Shown one piece after another: positions 1,945 through 14,925 of a stretch of 64,000 nucleotides of DNA (the first letter of the stretch is position 1; each line of letters begins with the position of its first letter). Origin of the DNA: Escherichia phage moskry; the sequence record MN850651.1; one strand, 5' to 3'. Below the pieces are notes generated by a model. That model searched no databases and had not been told where the DNA came from. It worked only from the letters and a program-made list of their open reading frames with translations. The translations under genes were made by a program, and so were the position numbers.

Positions 1945-2941
1945 TTCAAGTGTTATCTATCGTGCAATAGTTACATCAAAATTTAGAACAGAGAAAATGC
2001 TGAATTTTTATAATTCAGTTGGGGATGGAGATGATAAGAACTCCATTTATATTACGTTTGGACGTTCAGAGCCTTGGGCGTCAAATGAAAATGAGGTGGG
2101 CTTCGCCCCACCTTATCCTACAGATTCTGTTCTTGGTGTTACTGATATGTGGACCCACATGATGGGTACCGTTAAAGTTTTACCTTCAATGTTAGATTCT
2201 GTTATTCCTAGACGTGATTGGGGAGATGTGCGATATCCAGACCCTTACACGTTTAGAATTAACGATATAGTCGCATGTAATACTGCTCCGTACAACGCGA
2301 CAGAAGTTGGAGCCGGTTGGTTAATTTACCGTTGTTTAGATGTCCCTGACGTAGGGCTCTGTTCAATAGAATCTTTAGATAATAAAGATGAATGTCTTAA
2401 ATTGGGTGGTAAATGGACTCCGTCTGTTCGTTCTATGTCTCCTCCTGAAGGCAGAGGCGATGCTAATGGGGTTATCGAAACCGGTGATGGATATATTTGG
2501 GAATATCTTTATGAGATTCCTGCCGATGTGTCAATTAACCGTTGCACTAATGAATATCTTGTAGTTCCGTGGCCGGAAGAAATTAAAGAAGACCCCACCC
2601 GTTGGGGATATGAAAATAACTTAACTTGGCAACAAGACGACTACGGCTTGATTTATCGTGTTAAAGCTAATACAATGCGGTTTAAAGCATATTTTGATTC
2701 TGTTTATTTCCCTGAGGCAGCTTTGCCTGGTAACAAGGGATTTAGACAGATATCAATTATCGCAAACCCATTAGAAGCTAAGAAAAATCCAAATGACCCT
2801 AATGTTAAAGCAGAAAAGGATTATTACGACCCTAGAGACCTGCAACGTCATTCTGGTGAAATGATTTATATGGAAAACCGACCACCTGTTATTATGGCAA
2901 TGGACCAAACAGAAGAAATTAACATTTTGTTTATGTTTTAA
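1937..2941 (+). CDS. 8: Baseplate wedge protein gp8
   Basis: 334 aa, same length as T4 gp8 and near-identical to its remembered sequence (MNDSSVIYRAIVTSKFRTEK...). Confidence 0.9.
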   Translation: MNDSSVIYRAIVTSKFRTEKMLNFYNSVGDGDDKNSIYITFGRSEPWASNENEVGFAPPYPTDSVLGVTDMWTHMMGTVKVLPSMLDSVIPRRDWGDVRYPDPYTFRINDIVACNTAPYNATEVGAGWLIYRCLDVPDVGLCSIESLDNKDECLKLGGKWTPSVRSMSPPEGRGDANGVIETGDGYIWEYLYEIPADVSINRCTNEYLVVPWPEEIKEDPTRWGYENNLTWQQDDYGLIYRVKANTMRFKAYFDSVYFPEAALPGNKGFRQISIIANPLEAKKNPNDPNVKAEKDYYDPRDLQRHSGEMIYMENRPPVIMAMDQTEEINILFMF

Positions 2942-2944
2942 TTA

Positions 2945-2969
2945 GGGAGCCTTCGGGCTCCCATTTTTG
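2945..2969 (+). terminator. Intrinsic terminator after gene 8
   Basis: Hairpin GGGAGCcuucggGCUCCC followed by a T-run. Confidence 0.6.
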
Positions 2970-2973
2970 TGTC

Positions 2974-2981
2974 TATAAATA
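2974..2981 (+). promoter_or_regulatory. T4-type late promoter TATAAATA upstream of gene 9
   Basis: Exact TATAAATA about 30 nt upstream of the gp9 ATG. Confidence 0.7.
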
Positions 2982-3013
2982 GAATATAATATCGGACAAC
3001 AAAAGGCAGAATT

Positions 3014-3886
3014 ATGGCATTTTTTAAGCAAACTCCTAAACAATTAATCGATACCGGCGAAATTGGTAATGCCTCAACAGGTGATATCTTATTCGACGGT
3101 GGTAATAAAATAAATGACGATATCAACGCTATTTACAATGCATTTGGCGATCAACGTAAAATGGCCGTAGCAGATGGAACCGGACCTACAGGTCAAACTA
3201 TTCATGCCACAGGTTATTATCAAAAAGGAAAGGCGGTCGATTATCAAACTCCTATTAAACCAGGCACTATGCATGATATTGATGCTTCTGATGGTGGTGT
3301 GATTGTTATTATTGACCGTCCTGAATTAGGTGACTCCGTAGAATTCATAAACTCTAATGGGTCTATTTCTGTTAACAATCCTTTAAGTATCCAAGTAACT
3401 GATGGTTCAATTAAAGGTGTTCTTAATAATCTTGTTATTTCCACCCCTTATACCCATGTTGTTCTTCGTTGTGTTGAAATTAATGGGCCGACTTCAGTAT
3501 GGAATTATTCTACTGATAGCATGTTTGGGCAGAAAGAATCTCCTGTCGATGGGACTTGGAGTCTTACAGGAAACACAGTTTCTATTCCTCTGTTTTATCG
3601 CACAGATTATAACATGGCTAAATTGCTTGTTACATGTCAATCCGCTGACGGTAGAAAAATAAAAACATGTGAAATAAATATTCTAATAGATACAATTAAC
3701 TCAGAAGTTCTTTCTACCGAATTTGCAGTAATGCGAGTTGGTAATGTAGATGAAACCGACGAGATTGCTAATATTAGCTTTAGTATTATTAACAACTTTG
3801 CTACTATGACGATTACATCCGATATTATTGGATTACGTTCGGCAGTTAAAATTATCTCAACTCAGAAAATTGGGGTCGCTCAATAA
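3014..3886 (+). CDS. 9: Baseplate wedge / long tail fibre attachment protein gp9
   Basis: 290 aa; N-terminus LIDTGEIGNASTGDILFDGGNKIN matches T4 gp9; late promoter upstream. Confidence 0.9.
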   Translation: MAFFKQTPKQLIDTGEIGNASTGDILFDGGNKINDDINAIYNAFGDQRKMAVADGTGPTGQTIHATGYYQKGKAVDYQTPIKPGTMHDIDASDGGVIVIIDRPELGDSVEFINSNGSISVNNPLSIQVTDGSIKGVLNNLVISTPYTHVVLRCVEINGPTSVWNYSTDSMFGQKESPVDGTWSLTGNTVSIPLFYRTDYNMAKLLVTCQSADGRKIKTCEINILIDTINSEVLSTEFAVMRVGNVDETDEIANISFSIINNFATMTITSDIIGLRSAVKIISTQKIGVAQ

Positions 3887-5691
3887 TGAAACAAAATATT
3901 AAAATTGGTAACGTCGTTGATGACGGACAAGGCGATTACCTTCGTCGAGGTGGTGAAAAAATAAATGAGAACTTTGACGAAATCTATTATGAATTAGGTG
4001 ATGGTGAAGTTCCTTATGCCGCTGGTGCATGGAAGACTTATGATGCGGCTGATGGTCTTAATCTTAAGGCTGCTTGGGGTAAATCTTATGCAATTAATAC
4101 TACTTCTGGGCGAGTTTCGGTAAATCTTCCTAAAGGGACAATTGCAGACTATAATAAAGTTATTCGTGCCCGTGACGTATTTGCAACTTGGAACATTAAC
4201 CCTGTTACTTTAATTCCGGCAAACGGAGACACGATTAAAGGTTCTTCATCTCCGGTGGAAATTAACGTTCAGTTCTCTGATTTAGAATTAGTTTATTGTG
4301 CTCCTGGACGTTGGGAATACATCAAGAACAAACAAATTGACAAAATAGTTAGCTCTGACATTAGTAACGTTGCTCGTAGAGAATATCTGGTTGAAACCCA
4401 AGGTCAGACCGATTTCATGGATGTTTTTAACGGGACCTCTTATAACGTTAACAACATTCGCGTAAAACATCGTGGCAACGAATTGTACTATGGTGATGTA
4501 TTCAGTGATAACAGTGATTTTGGTTCTCCAGGCGCTAATCCTGGTGAACTGGTTGCACTCGATGGATTTAATATTAGATTACGCCAACCGTGTAATGTTG
4601 GGGACACTGTACAAATTGAGACATTCCTAGATGGTGTTTCTCAGTGGCGTAGTTCATATACTCGTCGCCAAGTTCGCATTTTAGATAGTAAATTGACTGC
4701 TAAAAAGTCTATTGACGGAAGTATTTACGTCACTGATTTGAGTACGTTCCGGTCTATTCCATTTACAGCATTTGGTATTAATCCTACGGAACCACCTAAC
4801 CCTAATTCGTTAGAAGTTCGCTTCAATGGTATTCTCCAAGAATTAGCTGGTACTGTTGGAACTCCTATTTTCCGTTGTGAAGGTGTGGATGCTGATTCTG
4901 AAGAGTCATGCGCTAATCTCGGTGGGACGTGGACTCAATCGTATACAGATTATGCGATTGAATATACTGATAATATCCCTAGCGCAATTCTGTTTGACCG
5001 TCAATTTGAAGACCAAGACATTATTACCATCACATGGTTTAATAACGATTTAGGAACTCTTCTTGAAATGGAAGAAATCCTTGATGTCGCTGATGAGAAA
5101 TATGTTTCTCAAGGGTCTAACATTGAAATTACTGGTGACGTTGCATTAACCGATTTCGATAAAATTGGATGGCCTAATGTAGAACCTGTTCCTAAGTATG
5201 AACGTGAATTCTCGACTATCTCAGCAATATTTGATACAATTTATCCTGTCGGGACTATTTACGAAAATGCGGTTAACCCTAATAATCCGGCAACTTATTT
5301 AGGTTTTGGTTTGTGGAAAATTTGGGGACAAGGCAAAGTATTAGCAGGTTGGAATGACGACGCATCCGATCCTAATTTTGCATTAAATAATAATGACCTT
5401 GACGTCAATGGTAACCCTACTCATACCGCAGGTGGTACCGTTGGTGTAACAACCATCACATTAGAAAATGCTGATTTACCAGCTACACAAACCGATGAAA
5501 AGGTTCTTATTTCTGATGATAATGGTACAGTAATTATAGGCGGTTGCCAATATGACCCGGATGAAGAAGGTCCTATTTACACTAAATATCGTGAAGACCA
5601 TGCAAAGACTAATGGATCTCATGTTCCAGCGCGTTCTATAACTAATATTCAGCCATCTATAACTGTATACCGTTGGGTAAGGATTGCATAA
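3886..5691 (+). CDS. 10: Baseplate wedge protein gp10
   Basis: 601 aa (T4 gp10 is 602 aa); position between gp9 and gp11. Confidence 0.9.
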
Positions 5692-6350
5692 TGACTGTAC
5701 TTAATACAAAGGCGGGAGTTATTTCCCGTCATGCTGATTTTTTGAATTACAGAAAAAATCCAGCTCAAATTGATGTTTTAAACAACCAAGCTGTAGGTTC
5801 CGTGACTATTTCTCAGTTAGCTCGCGGTTTTTATGATGCTAACGTAGAATCTGCAATAAATGATGTCCATAATATGGCACGAGCTGATATTGGTACTGTT
5901 GTCACAAACACTTCAGGCGTATCGCCTGAAGGTACAGCACAAGTTGATTATTGGACTTTTTCTGGTGATGTTCTCGACGATACTTTGACCACTGGAACGC
6001 CAGTCGTTATTAACGTATTTGGACTTGCTGTTAAAGCAACAATCGGTATGACTGATAACGAATTAACGGCACAAGTTCGTATAGCTTTACAAGAAGCCAT
6101 TGCTAATCAAATCGCTATTTCTTCTTATAAAGACCATCCATCCGAAGGTAATAAACTTCAGGTGACATATTTAGATAACCAACGTCATGTGTTGCCAACA
6201 TATGCTTCGTTTGGTGTAACAATTTCGCAAGAAATTTTGTCTGAAGCAAAATCCGGATACGGAACATGGAATTTATTAGGTGCCCAAACGGTTACTCTTG
6301 ATAACCATGATACTCCTACCGTTTTCTACCACTTTGTGAGAGCCTCATGA
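5691..6350 (+). CDS. 11: Baseplate wedge / short tail fibre attachment protein gp11
   Basis: Start moved to the ATG overlapping the gp10 stop (TAATG); 219 aa as in T4 gp11; ends ...TVFYHF like T4. Confidence 0.9.
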
Positions 6351-7930
6351 GTAATAACAATACATACCAACACGTTTCAAATGAATCTATTTACGTTGAA
6401 TTCGACCCTACTGGGTCGAATTTTCCAGATACAGTCACTAATGTCCAAGCCGCATTAGCTGCTATTTCTCCTTCAGGTGTTAATGGCGTACCGGAAGCAA
6501 CAACTACTACACCTGGAATTATTCAAATAGCCACTCCACAAGAAGTTATTGATGGATTAGATAATAGTAAAGCTGTTACTCCGGCATCACTGAATGCTCG
6601 TCTACAATATCCTAATGCAACCGAAACTCAATATGGTTTAACTCGTTATGCTACTGAAGATGAAGCAGTAGCCGGAGCTATTGACGATGCATCAATTACT
6701 CCGCTTAAATTGAATCAAAAAATAGACAATGTATTCCAGACAAAAGTATCAACAGAAGCAACAAATGGTGTAATTAAAATTTCAACTTCTGCTGCGGCAT
6801 TAGCTGGTTCTGACGATACAACGGCAATGACCCCGTTAAAAACACAACAATTAGCAATTAAACTTATTTCACAAATTGCTCCAAATAATGGTGACGCCAC
6901 CGAATCTATTACCGGTGTTGTTCGTTTGGCTACAGTTGCTCAAGCACAACAAGGCACCCTGCGTGAAGGCTATGCAATTTCACCTTATACCTTTATGAAT
7001 TCAGTAGCATCAGAAACTAATAAAGGTGTCGTTAAACTAGGGACACAGACTGAAGTAAATAGTAACAACTCTTCAGTTGTAGTGACTGGCGCAACATTAA
7101 ACGGGCGTGGGGCTACAACTTCTTTACGTGGAGTTGTTCGTTTAACTACACAAGCGGGTAGCCAATCAGGTGGTGATGGTTCTTCTGCCCTTGCTTGGAA
7201 TGCTGATGTTATCCACCAACGAGGTGGACAAACTATTAATGGCACGCTTCGCATTAATAATACGTTGACGGTTGGTTCTGGTGGAGCTAATATAACTGGT
7301 AATGTCAATATGACTGGTGGTTATATTCAAGGCAATCGTATTGTGACTCAAAATGAATTAGACCGAATTCTTCCAGTTGGCGCTATTACAATGTGGGCTG
7401 CAGATAGTTTACCGAGTTCTGACTGGCGCTTCTGTCACGGTGGGACCGTTTCTGCTTCAGAATGTCCGGTATATGCTTCCAGAATTGGGACACGATATGG
7501 TGGTAGTTCTTCTAACCCAGGCTTGCCTGATATGCGTGGATTATTTGTTCGCGGCTCAGGTCGTGGTAACCATTTAACTAACCCTAATGTTAATGGTAAT
7601 GACCAATTCGGTAAGCCTCGTCTGGCGGTAGGTTGTACCGGTGGATATGTTGGTGAGGTGCAAAAACAACAGATGTCATATCATAAGCATGCTGGCGGTT
7701 TTGGTGAACATGACGATGCAGGAGCATTCGGTAATACTCGTCGTTCAAACTTTGTTGGTACTCGTAAAGGACTTGACTGGGATAACCGTTCGTATTTTAC
7801 TAACGATGGATATGAAATTGATCCAGCGTCTCAGCGTAACTCTAAATATACCCTGAATCGTCCTGAATTAATTGGAAATGAAACACGTCCATGGAACATT
7901 TCTTTAAACTATATCATTAAGGTAAAATAA
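6347..7930 (+). CDS. 12: Short tail fibre protein gp12
   Basis: 527 aa, same as T4 gp12; synteny. Confidence 0.9.
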
Positions 7931-9378
7931 TGGCTGATATAACTCTGGTAGATTTACCATATGTTGACGGCCCGCCAGACGCGGGTCAGAGTCGTATTGA
8001 ATGGATTAAAAACGATGAAGAAATAACAGGTGCTGACACAAAATACGGTTCTGAAGGTGTAATGAACCGTCCTATTGTTGAAGTTCAACGTAACGTAGAA
8101 GCGTTAGATGTTAATATTAAAACTATAGCATCTTCTTTGAATACGGCCAATGAAGATATCAAAGTTATTCAAGGTATTTTAGATGTTTCTGGGGATGTTG
8201 ATGCTCTTTCACAGATAGGTCAGAACACCCAAGATATCGATGTCATTAAAGTCACAGTTCAAACCCATGCCAGTGAATTGAATGATTTGAATGAACATAT
8301 TGATGCGAATACTGATGATATTGGTGTTTATAATCAGGAAACAGATTCAGTTTATAGAACGGTTCGTAACGACCTGCTTTGGATTAAAAATGAATTAGGA
8401 CAATATACCGGTCAAGATATTAATGGGGTTCCTACTCCAGGAAATGATAGCACTGGTATGAAACGCCGTATTATGACTAATAGCTCCGTAATTGTTGACC
8501 ACGGTGTTCGTTTAACCGATTTAGAAACTAAATTTGCTGATTCTGACGTCGGCTCTTTAACTATTGAAGTCGAACACTTGCGCGAAGAAATGGGACCTCG
8601 CACTTCTTTCACTACTCCAGTGTTTAGTCGTCTTTCCAGTATTGATTTAACTTTATCGCGTCAAAATGCTGACTTGGATGGCATTAAACAGTCTATTGGG
8701 TATCCTAATACGACTTCTATTATTACTACAACTAATGCGAATAGTTCAGCAATAAACGACATTAATCTTGAGCTCAATCAATCAGGCGGTATTAAACCTC
8801 GTTTGACTACAGTAGAAACTGCCATTGGCGCCGATGATTTGCCTACTACAATCCAAGGACGTATTAAACTCAATACTGATGCTATCGGAGCATTGAATAC
8901 TGTTGTCGGCTCTGATTCTTCGTCAGGATTGCGTTTTAATGTGTCATGGTTAAATAACGTAGTTGGTGTTGACGCTTCAGGTGGGAAACCGGAACCAGAC
9001 GGCTCTTTGCTTTATCGTACTCGAGAGCTTGAAGGAACTATCGGTGGGCTGAGTAATGACATTCAGAACATTCAAACTGATGTTGGGACTAATTCCACAG
9101 GAATTAAGGGTTCTGTAAACACATTAAATACTCTTATAAATGGCACCAACCCAAATGGTTCGACTGTTGAAGAACGCGGTATATTGCCTACAGTTAAAAG
9201 TCATGATACGACAATTAATGGTTTAACTTCTAGAATTGCTACTCTTGAAACTGATTTGGCCGCTGCAGAAGCTGAAATCCAAACTCTTAAGGACGCTGGA
9301 TATATTGAAGATGCTCCTTCAGACGGTAAATTCTATGTTCGCAAAGATGGTGCATGGGTTGAACTTCCTACAGCTTAA
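7930..9378 (+). CDS. wac: Fibritin (whisker antigen control)
   Basis: 482 aa; N-terminus LPYVDGPPDAGQSRIEWIKN and C-terminal foldon GYIEDAPSDGKFYVRKDGAWVEL. Confidence 0.9.
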   Translation: MADITLVDLPYVDGPPDAGQSRIEWIKNDEEITGADTKYGSEGVMNRPIVEVQRNVEALDVNIKTIASSLNTANEDIKVIQGILDVSGDVDALSQIGQNTQDIDVIKVTVQTHASELNDLNEHIDANTDDIGVYNQETDSVYRTVRNDLLWIKNELGQYTGQDINGVPTPGNDSTGMKRRIMTNSSVIVDHGVRLTDLETKFADSDVGSLTIEVEHLREEMGPRTSFTTPVFSRLSSIDLTLSRQNADLDGIKQSIGYPNTTSIITTTNANSSAINDINLELNQSGGIKPRLTTVETAIGADDLPTTIQGRIKLNTDAIGALNTVVGSDSSSGLRFNVSWLNNVVGVDASGGKPEPDGSLLYRTRELEGTIGGLSNDIQNIQTDVGTNSTGIKGSVNTLNTLINGTNPNGSTVEERGILPTVKSHDTTINGLTSRIATLETDLAAAEAEIQTLKDAGYIEDAPSDGKFYVRKDGAWVELPTA

Positions 9379-9410
9379 TGAAAAGGGCCTTCGGGCCCTA
9401 AAGGATTTAT

Positions 9411-10337
9411 ATGTCAGGTTATAATGCACAAAACCCTAAAGAATTAAAGGATGTAATATTACGTCGTTTAGGCGCTCCTATTGTAAATGTTGAATTAACT
9501 ACAGACCAAATTTATGATTGTATTTCACGAGCGTTAGAACTTTATGGCGAATACCATTTTGACGGGTTGAATAAAGGTTTCCATGTATTTTTTGTTGATG
9601 ACGAAGAAAAATACCGTCACGGCGTATTTGATATGCGTGGTTCTAACGTATTTGCTGTAACAAGAATTATAAGAACAAACGTTGGCTCTATTACTTCAAT
9701 GGATGGTAATGCAACTTATCCATGGTTCACTGATTTCCTTTTAGGAATGGCAGGTGTTTCAGGTGGTATGGGTAGTAATTGTGGTAAATTCTACGGCCCG
9801 AACGCTTTTGGCGCTGACCTCGGGTATTATTCTCAATTAGTATCTTATATGGGTATGCTTCAAGATATGATTGCTCCTCTTCCAGATTTTTGGTTTAACT
9901 CTGCAAACGAGCAATTAAAAGTAATGGGTAACTTTAGACAGAAAGATGTCATTATCGTTGAATCGTACGTTCGCTCTTATATCGAGACCCATAAGATGGT
10001 AGGAAATACAGTAGGGTACGGTCAGGTCGGTCCTCGTGATTCATGGTCTATTTCTGAACGTTATGATAATCCAGACCATAATTTGGTCGGACGTCGAGTT
10101 GGTGAAGATCCTGCAACTAAACAAGGCGCATATAACAACCGCTGGGTTAAAGATTATGCAACTGCATTAGCTAAAGAGCTTAATGGACAAATTCTTGCTA
10201 AACATCAAGGTATGATGTTACCGGGTGGCGTCACTGTTGATGGTGTTCGATTAATTGAAGAAGCTCGTTTAGAGAAAGAAGCTTTACGAGAAGAGTTATA
10301 TTTACTGGACCCTCCTGCAGGTATTTTGGTAGGTTAA
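9411..10337 (+). CDS. 13: Neck protein gp13
   Basis: 308 aa (T4 gp13 is 309 aa); synteny after wac. Confidence 0.85.
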
Positions 10338-10338
10338 T

Positions 10339-10974
10339 ATGGCAACATACTACAGATTGTATATTACAACATTTGAAACATCCACCGGTATAAAGATTTA
10401 TGGTGGTAAACACAAATCAGTTTACGAAGACCCTTCAAAAGACCCTTATACTGGGTCTGGTACCTTTATACGAAGGGCCAAAAGAAAATACGGTCCGTCT
10501 TGTATAAAAGAAATTATATGGTCTAAGCCATTTGAATCTAAAGCTCTAATGGATGAAGCTGAAGAGTTACTGGTAGATGAATTATCCATTTTAGAAAATT
10601 GCGCAAATCTTGTTAAAGGTGGTGCAGGCGGAAGGTCGTATATTAACCCAGAAGATAATCCATCTATAGGACAAAAACGTTCAGTCCAAACTAAAAAGAA
10701 AATGTCTGACGCCGCAAAATCAAGAAAATGGACTGAAGAAGGGTTAAGAAAACGTAAAGAATCTACAGCAAGAATGTGGAAAGATTTCAAACATAGACAT
10801 CCTGATTTTTCTGGTTCAAAAAATCCAGCAGCTCGAAAAGTTAGTGTAAATGGTAAAATATTTAACACCTGCAAAGAATGTGGTGAAGAATTTAATATCA
10901 CATCAAGCGCGGTTATAGGCCGATGCAAAAACAACAAACCTAAATGGGCAGGATGGAATTATGTCGACGTATAA
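10339..10974 (+). CDS. Putative Seg-like GIY-YIG homing endonuclease inserted between genes 13 and 14
   Basis: N-terminal degenerate GIY-YIG-like motif ([18 protein letters not shown]); basic middle region with NUMOD-like repeats; C-terminal [22 protein letters not shown] resembles the I-TevI/Seg DNA-binding module; T4 has no gene here. Confidence 0.55.
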
Positions 10975-11725
10975 TTCAAATTTATTTGCAAAGTTAGAAA
11001 ACCGAGAAGGCTATTCTAAAACTAATGAAACCGAGATTTTAAACAAATACGTGAACTTCAACAAATACGAAAATAGTCAGACATTAGCCGATGTTCTAGT
11101 GGCAGAAAGCATACAGATGCGCGGTATTGAATGTTTTTATGTTCCACGTGAATATGTTGCCGTGGACCTTATCTTTGGTGAGGACCTTAAAAATAAATTT
11201 ACTAAAGCATGGAAATTTGCGGCATATCTGAACTCATTTGAAGGTTATGAAGGAGCGAAATCGTTCTTCAGCAACTTCGGAATGCAAGTTCAAGACGAAG
11301 TTACATTATCTATTAACCCGGGTCTTTTCAAACACCAGGTCAACAATCAGGAGCCCAAGGAAGGTGATTTAATATACTTCCCAATGGACAACAGTTTGTT
11401 TGAGATTAACTGGGTTGAACCATATGACCCATTCTATCAAGTAGGTAAAAATGCGATTCGTAAAATTACTGCAGGCAAGTTTATTTACTCTGGCGAAGAA
11501 ATCAATCCGGTGCTTCAGAAAAATGAAGGTATCAATATACCTGAATTTAGTGACTTGGAACTTAACCCTGTTAGAAATCTTGACGGTATCCATGACATTA
11601 ATATCGATGAATATTCTGAAGTTGAGCAAATCAATTCAGAGGCAAGTGAATACGTTGAGCCGTATGTAGTAGTTAACAACCGTGGTAGACAAAATTCACC
11701 ATTTGACGATGGGTTTATGAATTAA
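10961..11725 (+). CDS. 14: Neck protein gp14
   Basis: 254 aa; [15 protein letters not shown] matches T4 gp14. Confidence 0.85.
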
Positions 11726-11774
11726 TAAATAGATAAGATAAAGCAAACACCGGTCGAAAGGCCGGTTAGGAGAA

Positions 11775-12599
11775 ATGATGTTTGGTTATTTTTACAACTC
11801 GTCGTTCAGGCGATATATCACAATGATGGGCGATTTGTTTTCAAATATCCAAGTTAACCGTCAATTGTCTACAGGCAATAAATTAATTAGAGTTCCTATT
11901 ACGTATGCATCTAAAGAGCACTTTATGATGAAACTTAATAAATGGACCTCTATAAACTCACAAGAAGATGTGGCTAAAGTCGAAACTATTCTACCACGTA
12001 TAAATCTCCAAATGGTAGATTTCGTTTATAACCCAACGTTTAAAACGAATATATTGAATAACTCTCTTTTGAGTAAATCGACTAAGGATATTGTAGACCA
12101 ATACAACCCATCACCAATTAAAATGATTTTTGAACTGAGCATCTTTACTCGTTATGAAGATGATATGTTCCAAATCGTTGAGCAAATTATTCCATATTTT
12201 CAGCCGCATTTTAATACGACTATGATTGAGCAATATGGGCAGGATATTCCATTTGAAAGGGATATTAAAGTCGTATGGATGGCAGCAGCAATGGATGAAC
12301 AAATAGACGGTGATAATTTATCCCGTCGACGTTTAGAGTGGTCATTAACATTTGAAGTAAATGGATGGATGTATCCTCCGGTAGGCGCAGCTGAAGGCCT
12401 TATTAAAACGACTTATCTTGATTTTCATGCTAATGAACGAGACCTTCAAACAGCCGCCAGTGTTTTTGAATCAGTTGATACAGAAATTAAACCGAGAGAC
12501 GTTGAAGCACAAGATTGGAATGGCGAAGTTGAACAAACTTATACTCATGATATTCCAATCCCGACTCCACCAACCCCTCCTGGTCCTAGAAAACAATAA
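11775..12599 (+). CDS. 15: Tail sheath stabiliser / tail completion protein gp15
   Basis: 274 aa; MFGYFYNSSFRRY matches T4 gp15; true start may be the second ATG at 11778. Confidence 0.85.
   Translation: MMFGYFYNSSFRRYITMMGDLFSNIQVNRQLSTGNKLIRVPITYASKEHFMMKLNKWTSINSQEDVAKVETILPRINLQMVDFVYNPTFKTNILNNSLLSKSTKDIVDQYNPSPIKMIFELSIFTRYEDDMFQIVEQIIPYFQPHFNTTMIEQYGQDIPFERDIKVVWMAAAMDEQIDGDNLSRRRLEWSLTFEVNGWMYPPVGAAEGLIKTTYLDFHANERDLQTAASVFESVDTEIKPRDVEAQDWNGEVEQTYTHDIPIPTPPTPPGPRKQ

Positions 12600-14925
<2,326 letters not shown>

Follow-up and report, generated by a model that had tools for sequence, protein, structure and literature searches.

A Probable Free-Standing GIY-YIG Homing Endonuclease at the Gene 13/14 Junction of Escherichia Phage moskry

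Described endonucleases and the gene 13/14 locus

Among the endonucleases described in phage T4, SegC is a free-standing GIY-YIG enzyme that is active and is encoded between 5.1 and 5.3 (Table 1, PMC2988022), and the T4 genes segA-G and mobA-E are all located at sites other than the junction of genes 13 and 14 (PMC2988022). I-TevI is encoded by an intron of the T4 td gene and is represented in the PDB by its catalytic domain (1ln0/1mk0) and its DNA-binding domain (1i3j/1t2t). Through its DNA-binding domain, this enzyme has a repressor role as well (PMC2988022).

The window analyzed here, a stretch of 64,000 nucleotides from Escherichia phage moskry (MN850651.1), contains an open reading frame (ORF) of 211 amino acids at this junction (10339..10974, + strand). 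This ORF very probably encodes a free-standing Seg- or I-TevI-like GIY-YIG homing endonuclease specialized on the gene 13/14 junction of T4-like phages, the Seg-type assignment being based on the ORF list, PHROG 314, hhalign, and an AlphaFold2 (AF2) model. It is flanked upstream by gene 13, which encodes the neck protein serving as head-tail adaptor (9411..10337, + strand; PHROG 211, 2.2e-43, and gp13 annotation in relatives), and downstream by gene 14, which encodes the neck protein for head closure and is the presumed target (10961..11725, + strand; Pfam T4_neck-protein, 2e-127). Matches of gp15 to Pfam T4-gp15_tss (1e-95) and of wac to Fibritin_C confirmed these flanks. The endonuclease ORF is intact, starts with an ATG located 1 nucleotide past the gp13 stop (TAA-T-ATG, with the gp13 TAA at 10337), and overlaps the gp14 start at 10961 by 14 nucleotides, an overlap also given in the original prediction. 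Its G+C content of 36.3% is similar to that of the neighboring genes. The existence of full-length homologs and the intact state of the frame in the six other carrier genomes examined show that this is not a chance ORF. No other Seg-like or HNH-like genes were detected in the window by tblastn. The absence of a gene at this position in T4, also part of the original prediction, agrees with Table 1 of PMC2988022 and with three Tequatrovirus-like loci (L010, L011, and L013), in which the gp14 ATG directly follows the gp13 TAA.

The prediction implied more novelty than the gene has, as it is already publicly annotated as an endonuclease. GenBank records label it "GIY-YIG endonuclease" in RPN187, "homing endonuclease" in SQ17, NicPhage, JM10, and VIPECOMC06, and "putative endonuclease" in F2 and mogra, and the homolog in the Gaprivervirus SP18 (GQ981382) is annotated "segC." The gene is thus known at the annotation level and belongs to a well-known class; a search of the searchable literature retrieved no biochemical or genetic data and no paper on this endonuclease.

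The closest match in T4 is SegC, with 34% identity over amino acids 4 to 197 (E value, 2e-9) and the same domain order. T4 segC differs in lying between 5.1 and 5.3, which implies a different target, and the candidate assignment of the moskry gene as an orthologue of T4 segC was rejected because of this other locus and the low identity. The SP18 and Phi1 genes owe their "segC" label to best-hit naming and not to their genomic position. Much closer relatives are found at the 13/14 junction itself. The copies of the Mosigvirus carriers RPN187, SQ17, NicPhage, and JM10 are 99% identical, have the same junction, and show no differences in arrangement. The genes of Shigella phage SP18, vB_EcoM_RZ, VR26, and Klebsiella phage KpF2 are 55 to 60% identical over the full length. 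Like the moskry gene, they occupy the 13/14 position, overlap the start of gp14, and show a presence/absence polymorphism. These carriers from other genera differ in that their gp14 N termini are recoded otherwise (MRNSYDAS... and MRDWDEN...), and some members have their own ribosome-binding site (RBS) in a short spacer, without sharing the start of gene 14. The Phi1 or RB49-type "segC" of Krischvirus is also located at the 13/14 junction, with an 8-nucleotide overlap with the gp14 start, and is a GIY-YIG protein by its match to Pfam SegE_GIY-YIG (29.5 bits, above the cutoff of 25). It differs in being only 29% identical, thus forming a separate Seg lineage, and in having its own RBS in a 66-nucleotide spacer after gp13.

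Domain organization and catalytic residues

The endonuclease is composed of three parts, as follows: an N-terminal GIY-YIG nuclease domain (amino acids 1 to 98; 10339..10632, + strand) carrying RLY8, Y21-G-G23, E75, N90, and G94-G95; a basic linker with a NUMOD3-like helix (amino acids 105 to 123; 10651..10707, + strand); and a C-terminal I-TevI-type helix-turn-helix DNA-binding domain (amino acids 159 to 208; 10813..10962, + strand). The whole length of the protein matches the PHROG 314 family, "homing endonuclease," with an E value of 1.3e-37. Searches with the single sequence gave no match at an E value of ≤1 to the Pfam models PF01541 and PF19835 and no above-threshold GIY-YIG match in NCBIfam, where TIGR01453, "group I intron endonuclease," reached 28.8 bits (cutoff, 56.05) over amino acids 95 to 208 only. 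The Pfam I-TevI_DNA-bd model (PF20987) matched amino acids 159 to 204 with an E value of 9.7e-5 and 22.6 bits, under its cutoff of 27, and NUMOD3 gave a single match at 20.0 bits, just under its cutoff of 20.4. Both models are matched by 11 of the 12 family members, PF20987 with a best E value of 1.6e-10. The basic, NUMOD-like middle and the I-TevI- or Seg-like C terminus of the original prediction were thereby recovered, the latter (amino acids 167 to 188) falling inside the I-TevI_DNA-bd match.

Two profiles of different breadth were compared with the PDB. The narrow family profile, built from 12 homologs with 52 to 63% identity to the endonuclease, matched the I-TevI DNA-binding domain (1i3j, 2.5e-5) and only that domain, while a broader profile of 46 sequences matched the I-TevI catalytic domain (1ln0, 5.6e-10) in addition to 1i3j (3.4e-13). 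In hhalign comparisons, the narrow profile aligned over amino acids 4 to 208 with nine Seg-like proteins that have Pfam GIY-YIG matches (99.7%; E value, 7.9e-26). It also aligned with residues 68 to 244 of I-TevI (94%), pairing E75 with E75 and N90 with N90; the I-TevI sequence used for this alignment is consistent with the PDB alignments. A phmmer search of the endonuclease against the PDB gave noise and a weak 1i3j match. The AF2 model is confident (pLDDT of 90.6) and presents, in order, a beta-hairpin, a helix, a strand, a helix, two linker helices, and the C-terminal helix-turn-helix, so that the N-terminal part has the alpha/beta GIY-YIG fold. Foldseek with the whole two-domain model was weak and uninformative (1ln0 at an E value of 0.39). 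Assignment of the catalytic domain therefore needed the broader profile, profile-profile comparison, and the structure model, because the narrow profile saw the DNA-binding domain only. The predicted GIY-YIG membership rests on this profile-profile and fold evidence and lies under the curated single-model thresholds. The profile searches and the Seg and I-TevI alignments that had been proposed as checks thus both came out in favor of a Seg-like GIY-YIG homing endonuclease, the former at the profile-profile level with PF01541 and PF19835 silent on the single sequence. A library of 1.84 billion representatives contained 1,743 relatives at an E value of ≤1e-3 and only 2 at ≤1e-30. This endonuclease is one small lineage inside a very large Seg-like superfamily.

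With I-TevI, the protein shares the two-domain architecture, the GIY-YIG fold, the positions of E75 and N90, and a C-terminal helix-turn-helix ending in W-x-Y. It is unlike I-TevI in being free-standing, in having no zinc finger, and in its shorter linker (211 versus 245 amino acids for the proteins), and the helix that carries Arg27 in I-TevI is replaced by a Seg-typical "D-x-Y-x-G-S-G" loop. The residues invariant in the 12 homologs include R6, L7, Y8, Y21, G22, G23, K24, E75, N90, G94, and G95, and N90 is the sole fully invariant column of the 46-sequence set. R6-L7-Y8 and Y21-G22-G23 align to the columns that hold GIY and YIG in canonical Seg-like proteins, although the motif letters are noncanonical (RLY and YGG) and the spacing between the two tyrosines is 13, versus 11 in I-TevI. 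The original prediction had correctly placed this motif (amino acids 6 to 23) in the N terminus, but its description as degenerate did not stand, as R-L-Y...Y-G-G is invariant and normal for the family.

Two features of the catalytic domain bear on whether the enzyme still cuts. In the model, the alpha1 helix is replaced by a loop (amino acids 28 to 41), and the equivalent of I-TevI Arg27 is not assignable. Residues 24 to 26 are K24-H25-K26 in the window versus K24-R25-H26 in close homologs. In the Seg-like set, R, H, and D all occur at position 25, also in members that have Pfam GIY-YIG matches, and His25 is therefore not evidence of inactivation; its candidacy as the mark of an inactivated enzyme was rejected, given that His is common at this position in the wider Seg-like family.

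A decayed or domesticated Seg remnant that no longer cuts, and that is retained as a passenger or for DNA binding (e.g., as a regulator) through its helix-turn-helix, is unlikely. Such a protein might be expected to show the unassignable Arg27, the exchange of Arg25 for His, and the silence of the Pfam GIY-YIG models, and I-TevI offers a precedent, since its DNA-binding domain also lets it act as a repressor (PMC2988022). However, His25 is common in Seg-like proteins with Pfam GIY-YIG matches, Y8, Y21, G23, E75, and N90 are invariant down to 52% identity, and the ORF is intact in all seven carriers examined, with two conservative changes and all others synonymous. The patchy distribution over unrelated flanks and the limited sequence variation of the insert, described in the next section, also point to recent spread rather than decay. 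The endonuclease is real and probably active.

Distribution of the insert and anatomy of the junction

The insert is optional among closely related phages. A megablast search with the gp13-ORF-gp14 segment placed the window in Mosigvirus (99.6% to phage S143_2). Of about 150 Mosigvirus records at ≥95% identity, only 12 covered the full query. Most of the remaining records at this identity covered 72 to 74% in two pieces, showing that the endonuclease ORF is absent from them, and in the seven insert-free Mosigvirus genomes fetched, gp13 and gp14 are contiguous (TAA-T-ATG). Gaprivervirus has a homolog in 9 of about 33 records, with about 24 lacking it. In about 500 Tequatrovirus records at ≥90% identity, the 13-14 region is mostly in one piece, to judge by the 20 rows listed, 2 of which show an insert. 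Scans of IMG/VR retrieved only three carrier loci and no close Mosigvirus. Optional presence at a single site among near-identical genomes is the behavior of a mobile element, as judged from these sequences.

The seven carrier copies (the window and six others) are all intact and 2 to 4 nucleotides apart, and their only amino acid changes are V116A and T118S. Diversity was compared across 14 of the roughly 150 Mosigvirus genomes. Between carriers, the endonuclease gene differs by 0.36%, gp13 by 1.74%, and the rest of gp14 by 1.38%; between carriers and empty genomes, gp13 differs by 1.62% and the rest of gp14 by 2.77%. In gp13, gp14, and gp15, several carriers are closest to an insert-free genome, and the carriers form no clade in the flanks. 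Its low diversity together with these scrambled flanks indicates that the insert is younger than the genomic backgrounds in which it is found and is uncoupled from them, in keeping with a recent horizontal spread, although general recombination among T4-like phages could have shuffled the flanks as well. Mosaic flanks are no proof of nuclease-driven spread, because T4-like phages recombine heavily.

Beyond Mosigvirus, homologs with 52 to 63% identity are located at the 13/14 junction in Gaprivervirus (RZ, VR26, and SP18), in Slopekvirus (KpF2), and in three further T4-like contigs, and this junction is the site of all full-length family members located. One relative, similar in the catalytic domain only (44% identity) and with another C terminus, adjoins nrdD/nrdG, as would be expected were the target determined by the C-terminal domain. 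The 13/14 junction is also occupied by an HNH enzyme in Tequatrovirus and by the distant Seg protein in Krischvirus, so that it is used by three endonuclease lineages, including the present one.

At the left end, the insert reuses the start of gene 14. The empty Mosigvirus site reads ...GGTTAATATGGCAACTTATGATAAAAATCTTTTCGCC... (in F27, ...GGTTAATATGGCAACTTATGAT), and the left side of the insert in the window reads ...GGTTAATATGGCAACATACTACAGATTG..., with the endonuclease beginning MATYY. The start codon and the first ~11 nucleotides of the ORF (ATGGCAACATA, encoding MATY; 10339..10349, + strand) are common with the resident gene 14, that is, the endonuclease ORF begins with gene 14's own start (ATGGCAAC..., MATY). 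Gaprivervirus has the same arrangement, in which the empty gp14 begins MATYDSR, the carrier endonuclease MATYY, and the carrier gp14 MRNSYDAS. At the synonymous codon 2, Mosigvirus has GCA and Gaprivervirus has GCT, in carriers and empties alike; since this codon follows the host lineage, the first codons are part of the host flank and not of the insert. Family members of other lineages start with M-x-Y-R-L-Y, preceded by an RBS of their own in a short spacer. The insertion between genes 13 and 14 in the original prediction is therefore right as to position, but the gene is not simply wedged there, since it shares the initiation codon of gene 14 and supplies a new gene 14 5' end.

At the right end, the 3' end of every member encodes ...W-N/x-Y, with the gp14 ATG embedded in the Tyr codon and an overlap of 8 or 14 nucleotides; this overlap architecture is also found in RZ, KpF2, Phi1, and two further loci (L040 and L041). 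The W-N-Y codons around the gp14 ATG are invariant. The gp14 translation-initiation region thus lies within the 3' end of the endonuclease gene (AGGA, 7 nucleotides, ATG; 10950..10963, + strand), with the AGGA at 10950 to 10953, 7 nucleotides upstream of the ATG.

From this ATG, gene 14 restarts in the window as ATGTCGACGTATAATTCAAATTTATTTGCA..., a recoded 5' end (10961..11011, + strand) that likely represents both a homing site that has been disrupted and the right boundary of the mobile unit. Compared with F27, 16 of the first 51 nucleotides differ (17 of the first 63), and within the conserved stretch NLFAKLENR, seven of the nine codons are synonymously changed in carriers. In a MAFFT alignment of this start, carriers differ from empty genomes by 27.7% and from one another by 0%, versus 2.8% between carriers and empties for the rest of gene 14. 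The first ~50 nucleotides of gene 14 hold the only fixed differences between carriers and empties in a 5.3-kb region, and the recoded variant is confined to the 12 carrier records. The pattern of recoding recurs in Gaprivervirus. T4-like phages naturally differ in their gp14 N terminus (MMNNN, MNNK, MTTYDSS, and MYDSS), which explains how recoding is tolerated at this position. The recoded end is likely a signature of self-immunity and of the target site. It could instead be hitchhiking foreign DNA rather than selected immunity, an alternative that arises because the search for a donor found none, the best insert-free phage match being about 81%.

These observations also bear on where the enzyme acts. 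A nuclease of interphage competition with its main target elsewhere, which would cause marker exclusion without homing and for which 13/14 is a permissive landing site, is improbable. The unrelated HNH enzyme and the distant Seg protein at the same junction are what a permissive hotspot would accumulate, but the restriction of all located full-length members to 13/14, the relative near nrdD/nrdG with the same catalytic domain and a different C terminus, which fits local targeting by the DNA-binding domain, and the carrier-linked recoding of the first 50 nucleotides of gene 14, which a local target predicts, argue for action at the junction. That the gene encodes a conserved accessory protein of the neck module without nuclease function, as suggested by the location in the late structural operon with translational coupling to gp13 and gp14, has a negligible probability and is refuted by the presence/absence data: the gene is missing in about 90% of close Mosigvirus relatives and in most Tequatrovirus records, whose gp13 and gp14 adjoin directly, and its homology is to endonucleases, not to structural proteins. 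The possibility of a conserved resident gene, raised with the original prediction, is answered in the same way by the absence from most close relatives.

Proposed homing cycle and significance

Four lines of evidence were observed at this locus: domain homology, conservation of catalytic residues, a precise presence/absence polymorphism, and a linked recoded segment. From the sequences we infer cleavage activity, the location of the target, immunity, and the timing of expression. No consensus late promoter (TATAAATA) is present on the + strand from 2974 to 14918, scans for sigma-70 promoters and terminators returned chance-level hits only, and no significant RNA structure was found at either start site. 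Expression of the endonuclease is most likely late, via the neck-operon transcript and by translational coupling to gp13, and gp14 would be reinitiated from the AGGA-N7-ATG within the 3' end of the endonuclease gene.

In the proposed cycle of a homing endonuclease specialized on this junction, the protein would bind the intact gp13-stop/gp14-start region of a coinfecting insert-free genome and cut the DNA near the bound gp13/gp14 junction. Recombinational repair with the carrier genome as the template would then copy the endonuclease gene together with about 50 nucleotides of the recoded gene 14 5' end. The carrier itself may be immune for two reasons, first because its site is split by an insert that reuses the ATG and first ~11 nucleotides of gene 14, and second because the regenerated gene 14 start differs at 16 of 51 nucleotides.

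A broader reading, which has about an even chance of being correct in both its parts, is that the mobile unit is a self-immunizing cassette and that the 13/14 junction is an arena of competing homing endonucleases. At one end of such a cassette, in-frame fusion to the first ~11 nucleotides of the essential gene 14 would capture the ribosome-binding site of this gene and couple the unit to gp13; at the other end, the cassette would carry a portable, recoded replacement of the gene 14 initiation region and of its first ~16 codons. In this arena, shared with at least two further endonuclease lineages, each lineage would protect the target in its own way.

What is new here is the sharing of the start codon, the insert-linked recoded end of gene 14, which is the predicted homing and immunity site, and the presence of three lineages at 13/14. 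The locus is a clean natural example more than a discovery, and these details are useful and testable yet unsurprising to a specialist. The recoded gene 14 start offers a ready prediction of where homing takes place and what confers immunity, and the three lineages make the junction convenient for studying competition between selfish nucleases beside an essential gene. The endonuclease marks a boundary of recombination in Mosigvirus, which is relevant to cocktails of therapeutic T4-like phages, and a homing endonuclease within the neck operon can bias how genes 13 and 14 are inherited in mixed infections.

Other endonucleases at the 13/14 junction

The junction between genes 13 and 14 also harbors endonucleases other than the Seg-type GIY-YIG protein of the window. 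In some Tequatroviruses, it holds an HNH protein of 270 amino acids that is unrelated to the window protein, as seen in a T4-like contig from IMG/VR (L012, positions 1687 to 2499) and in Tequatrovirus AV119 (OR352949.1; L043, positions 1137 to 1949). This protein matches the Pfam HNH_4 profile at 23 to 24 bits, exceeding the cut-off of 22. Its gene is placed precisely from the gp13 stop to the gp14 start, leaving the start of gp14 (MATYDKN) unaltered, and the same insert of approximately 808 nt is also present in SHFML-26. A third endonuclease lineage occupies the junction in the Krischvirus Phi1, where the gene is annotated as “segC” (L008, positions 1501 to 2085). Its product exceeds the threshold for the Pfam SegE_GIY-YIG profile and shares only 29% identity with the window protein. 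The Phi1 gene is preceded by a 66-nt spacer with its own ribosome-binding site and overlaps gp14 by 8 nt.

Possible domain exchange and mosaicism among relatives and carriers

A relative of 269 amino acids, encoded on Logan contig SRR31864812_7989 (L042, positions 2501 to 3310), shares the N-terminal catalytic domain (44% identity) but differs over its C-terminal half, and its gene is located downstream of nrdD/nrdG-like genes, not at the 13/14 junction. This looks like domain shuffling that retargeted the nuclease.

By the taxonomy line of its record, phage F2 (L027; MN864145.1/NC_054913.1) belongs to Tequatrovirus efftwo, yet across gp12 to gp17, including the endonuclease, it is 99% identical to the Mosigvirus genomes. 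This discrepancy reflects either a wrong classification of the record or a mosaic genome. In vB_Eco_NicPhage, two overlapping coding sequences are annotated for gp15 (L028, positions 3868 to 4816), and gp16 starts 127 nt farther downstream than in other carrier loci, which suggests that gp15 of this phage has undergone an insertion or a frameshift. The fibritin gene (wac) of vB_EcoM_SQ17 (L030, positions 26 to 1468; compared with window positions 7930 to 9378) differs by up to 28% from other Mosigvirus copies, whereas the adjoining gp13, endonuclease, and gp14 are near-identical. This is a sharp recombination boundary immediately upstream of the neck genes.

Repeats and putative transcription signals around the neck genes

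Window positions 10956 to 10977 contain an inverted repeat of 8 bp, GAATTATG/TATAATTC, whose loop includes GTCGAC; it extends over the start codon of gp14 and the stop codon of the endonuclease. This repeat is found in carriers only and is not significant relative to shuffled sequences (z = +0.45).

In the whole window, there are 17 copies of the T4 late-promoter core TATAAATA (for example, at 14918, 16312, 16968, and 17588) against 7.2 expected, a count reached in none of 100 shuffles. Most copies lie on the plus strand. Between 2974 and 14918, the plus strand has none, a gap that covers the entire wac-13-14-15-16 block. A G+C-rich palindromic hairpin (AGGGCC-TTCG-GGCCCT; positions 9384 to 9399) is situated in the 32 nt that separate wac from gene 13; the annotations of the relatives WFbE185 and KAW3E185 list the same element as a putative transcription terminator. 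If this hairpin terminates transcription, expression of gene 13 and the endonuclease would require read-through or an unrecognized promoter.
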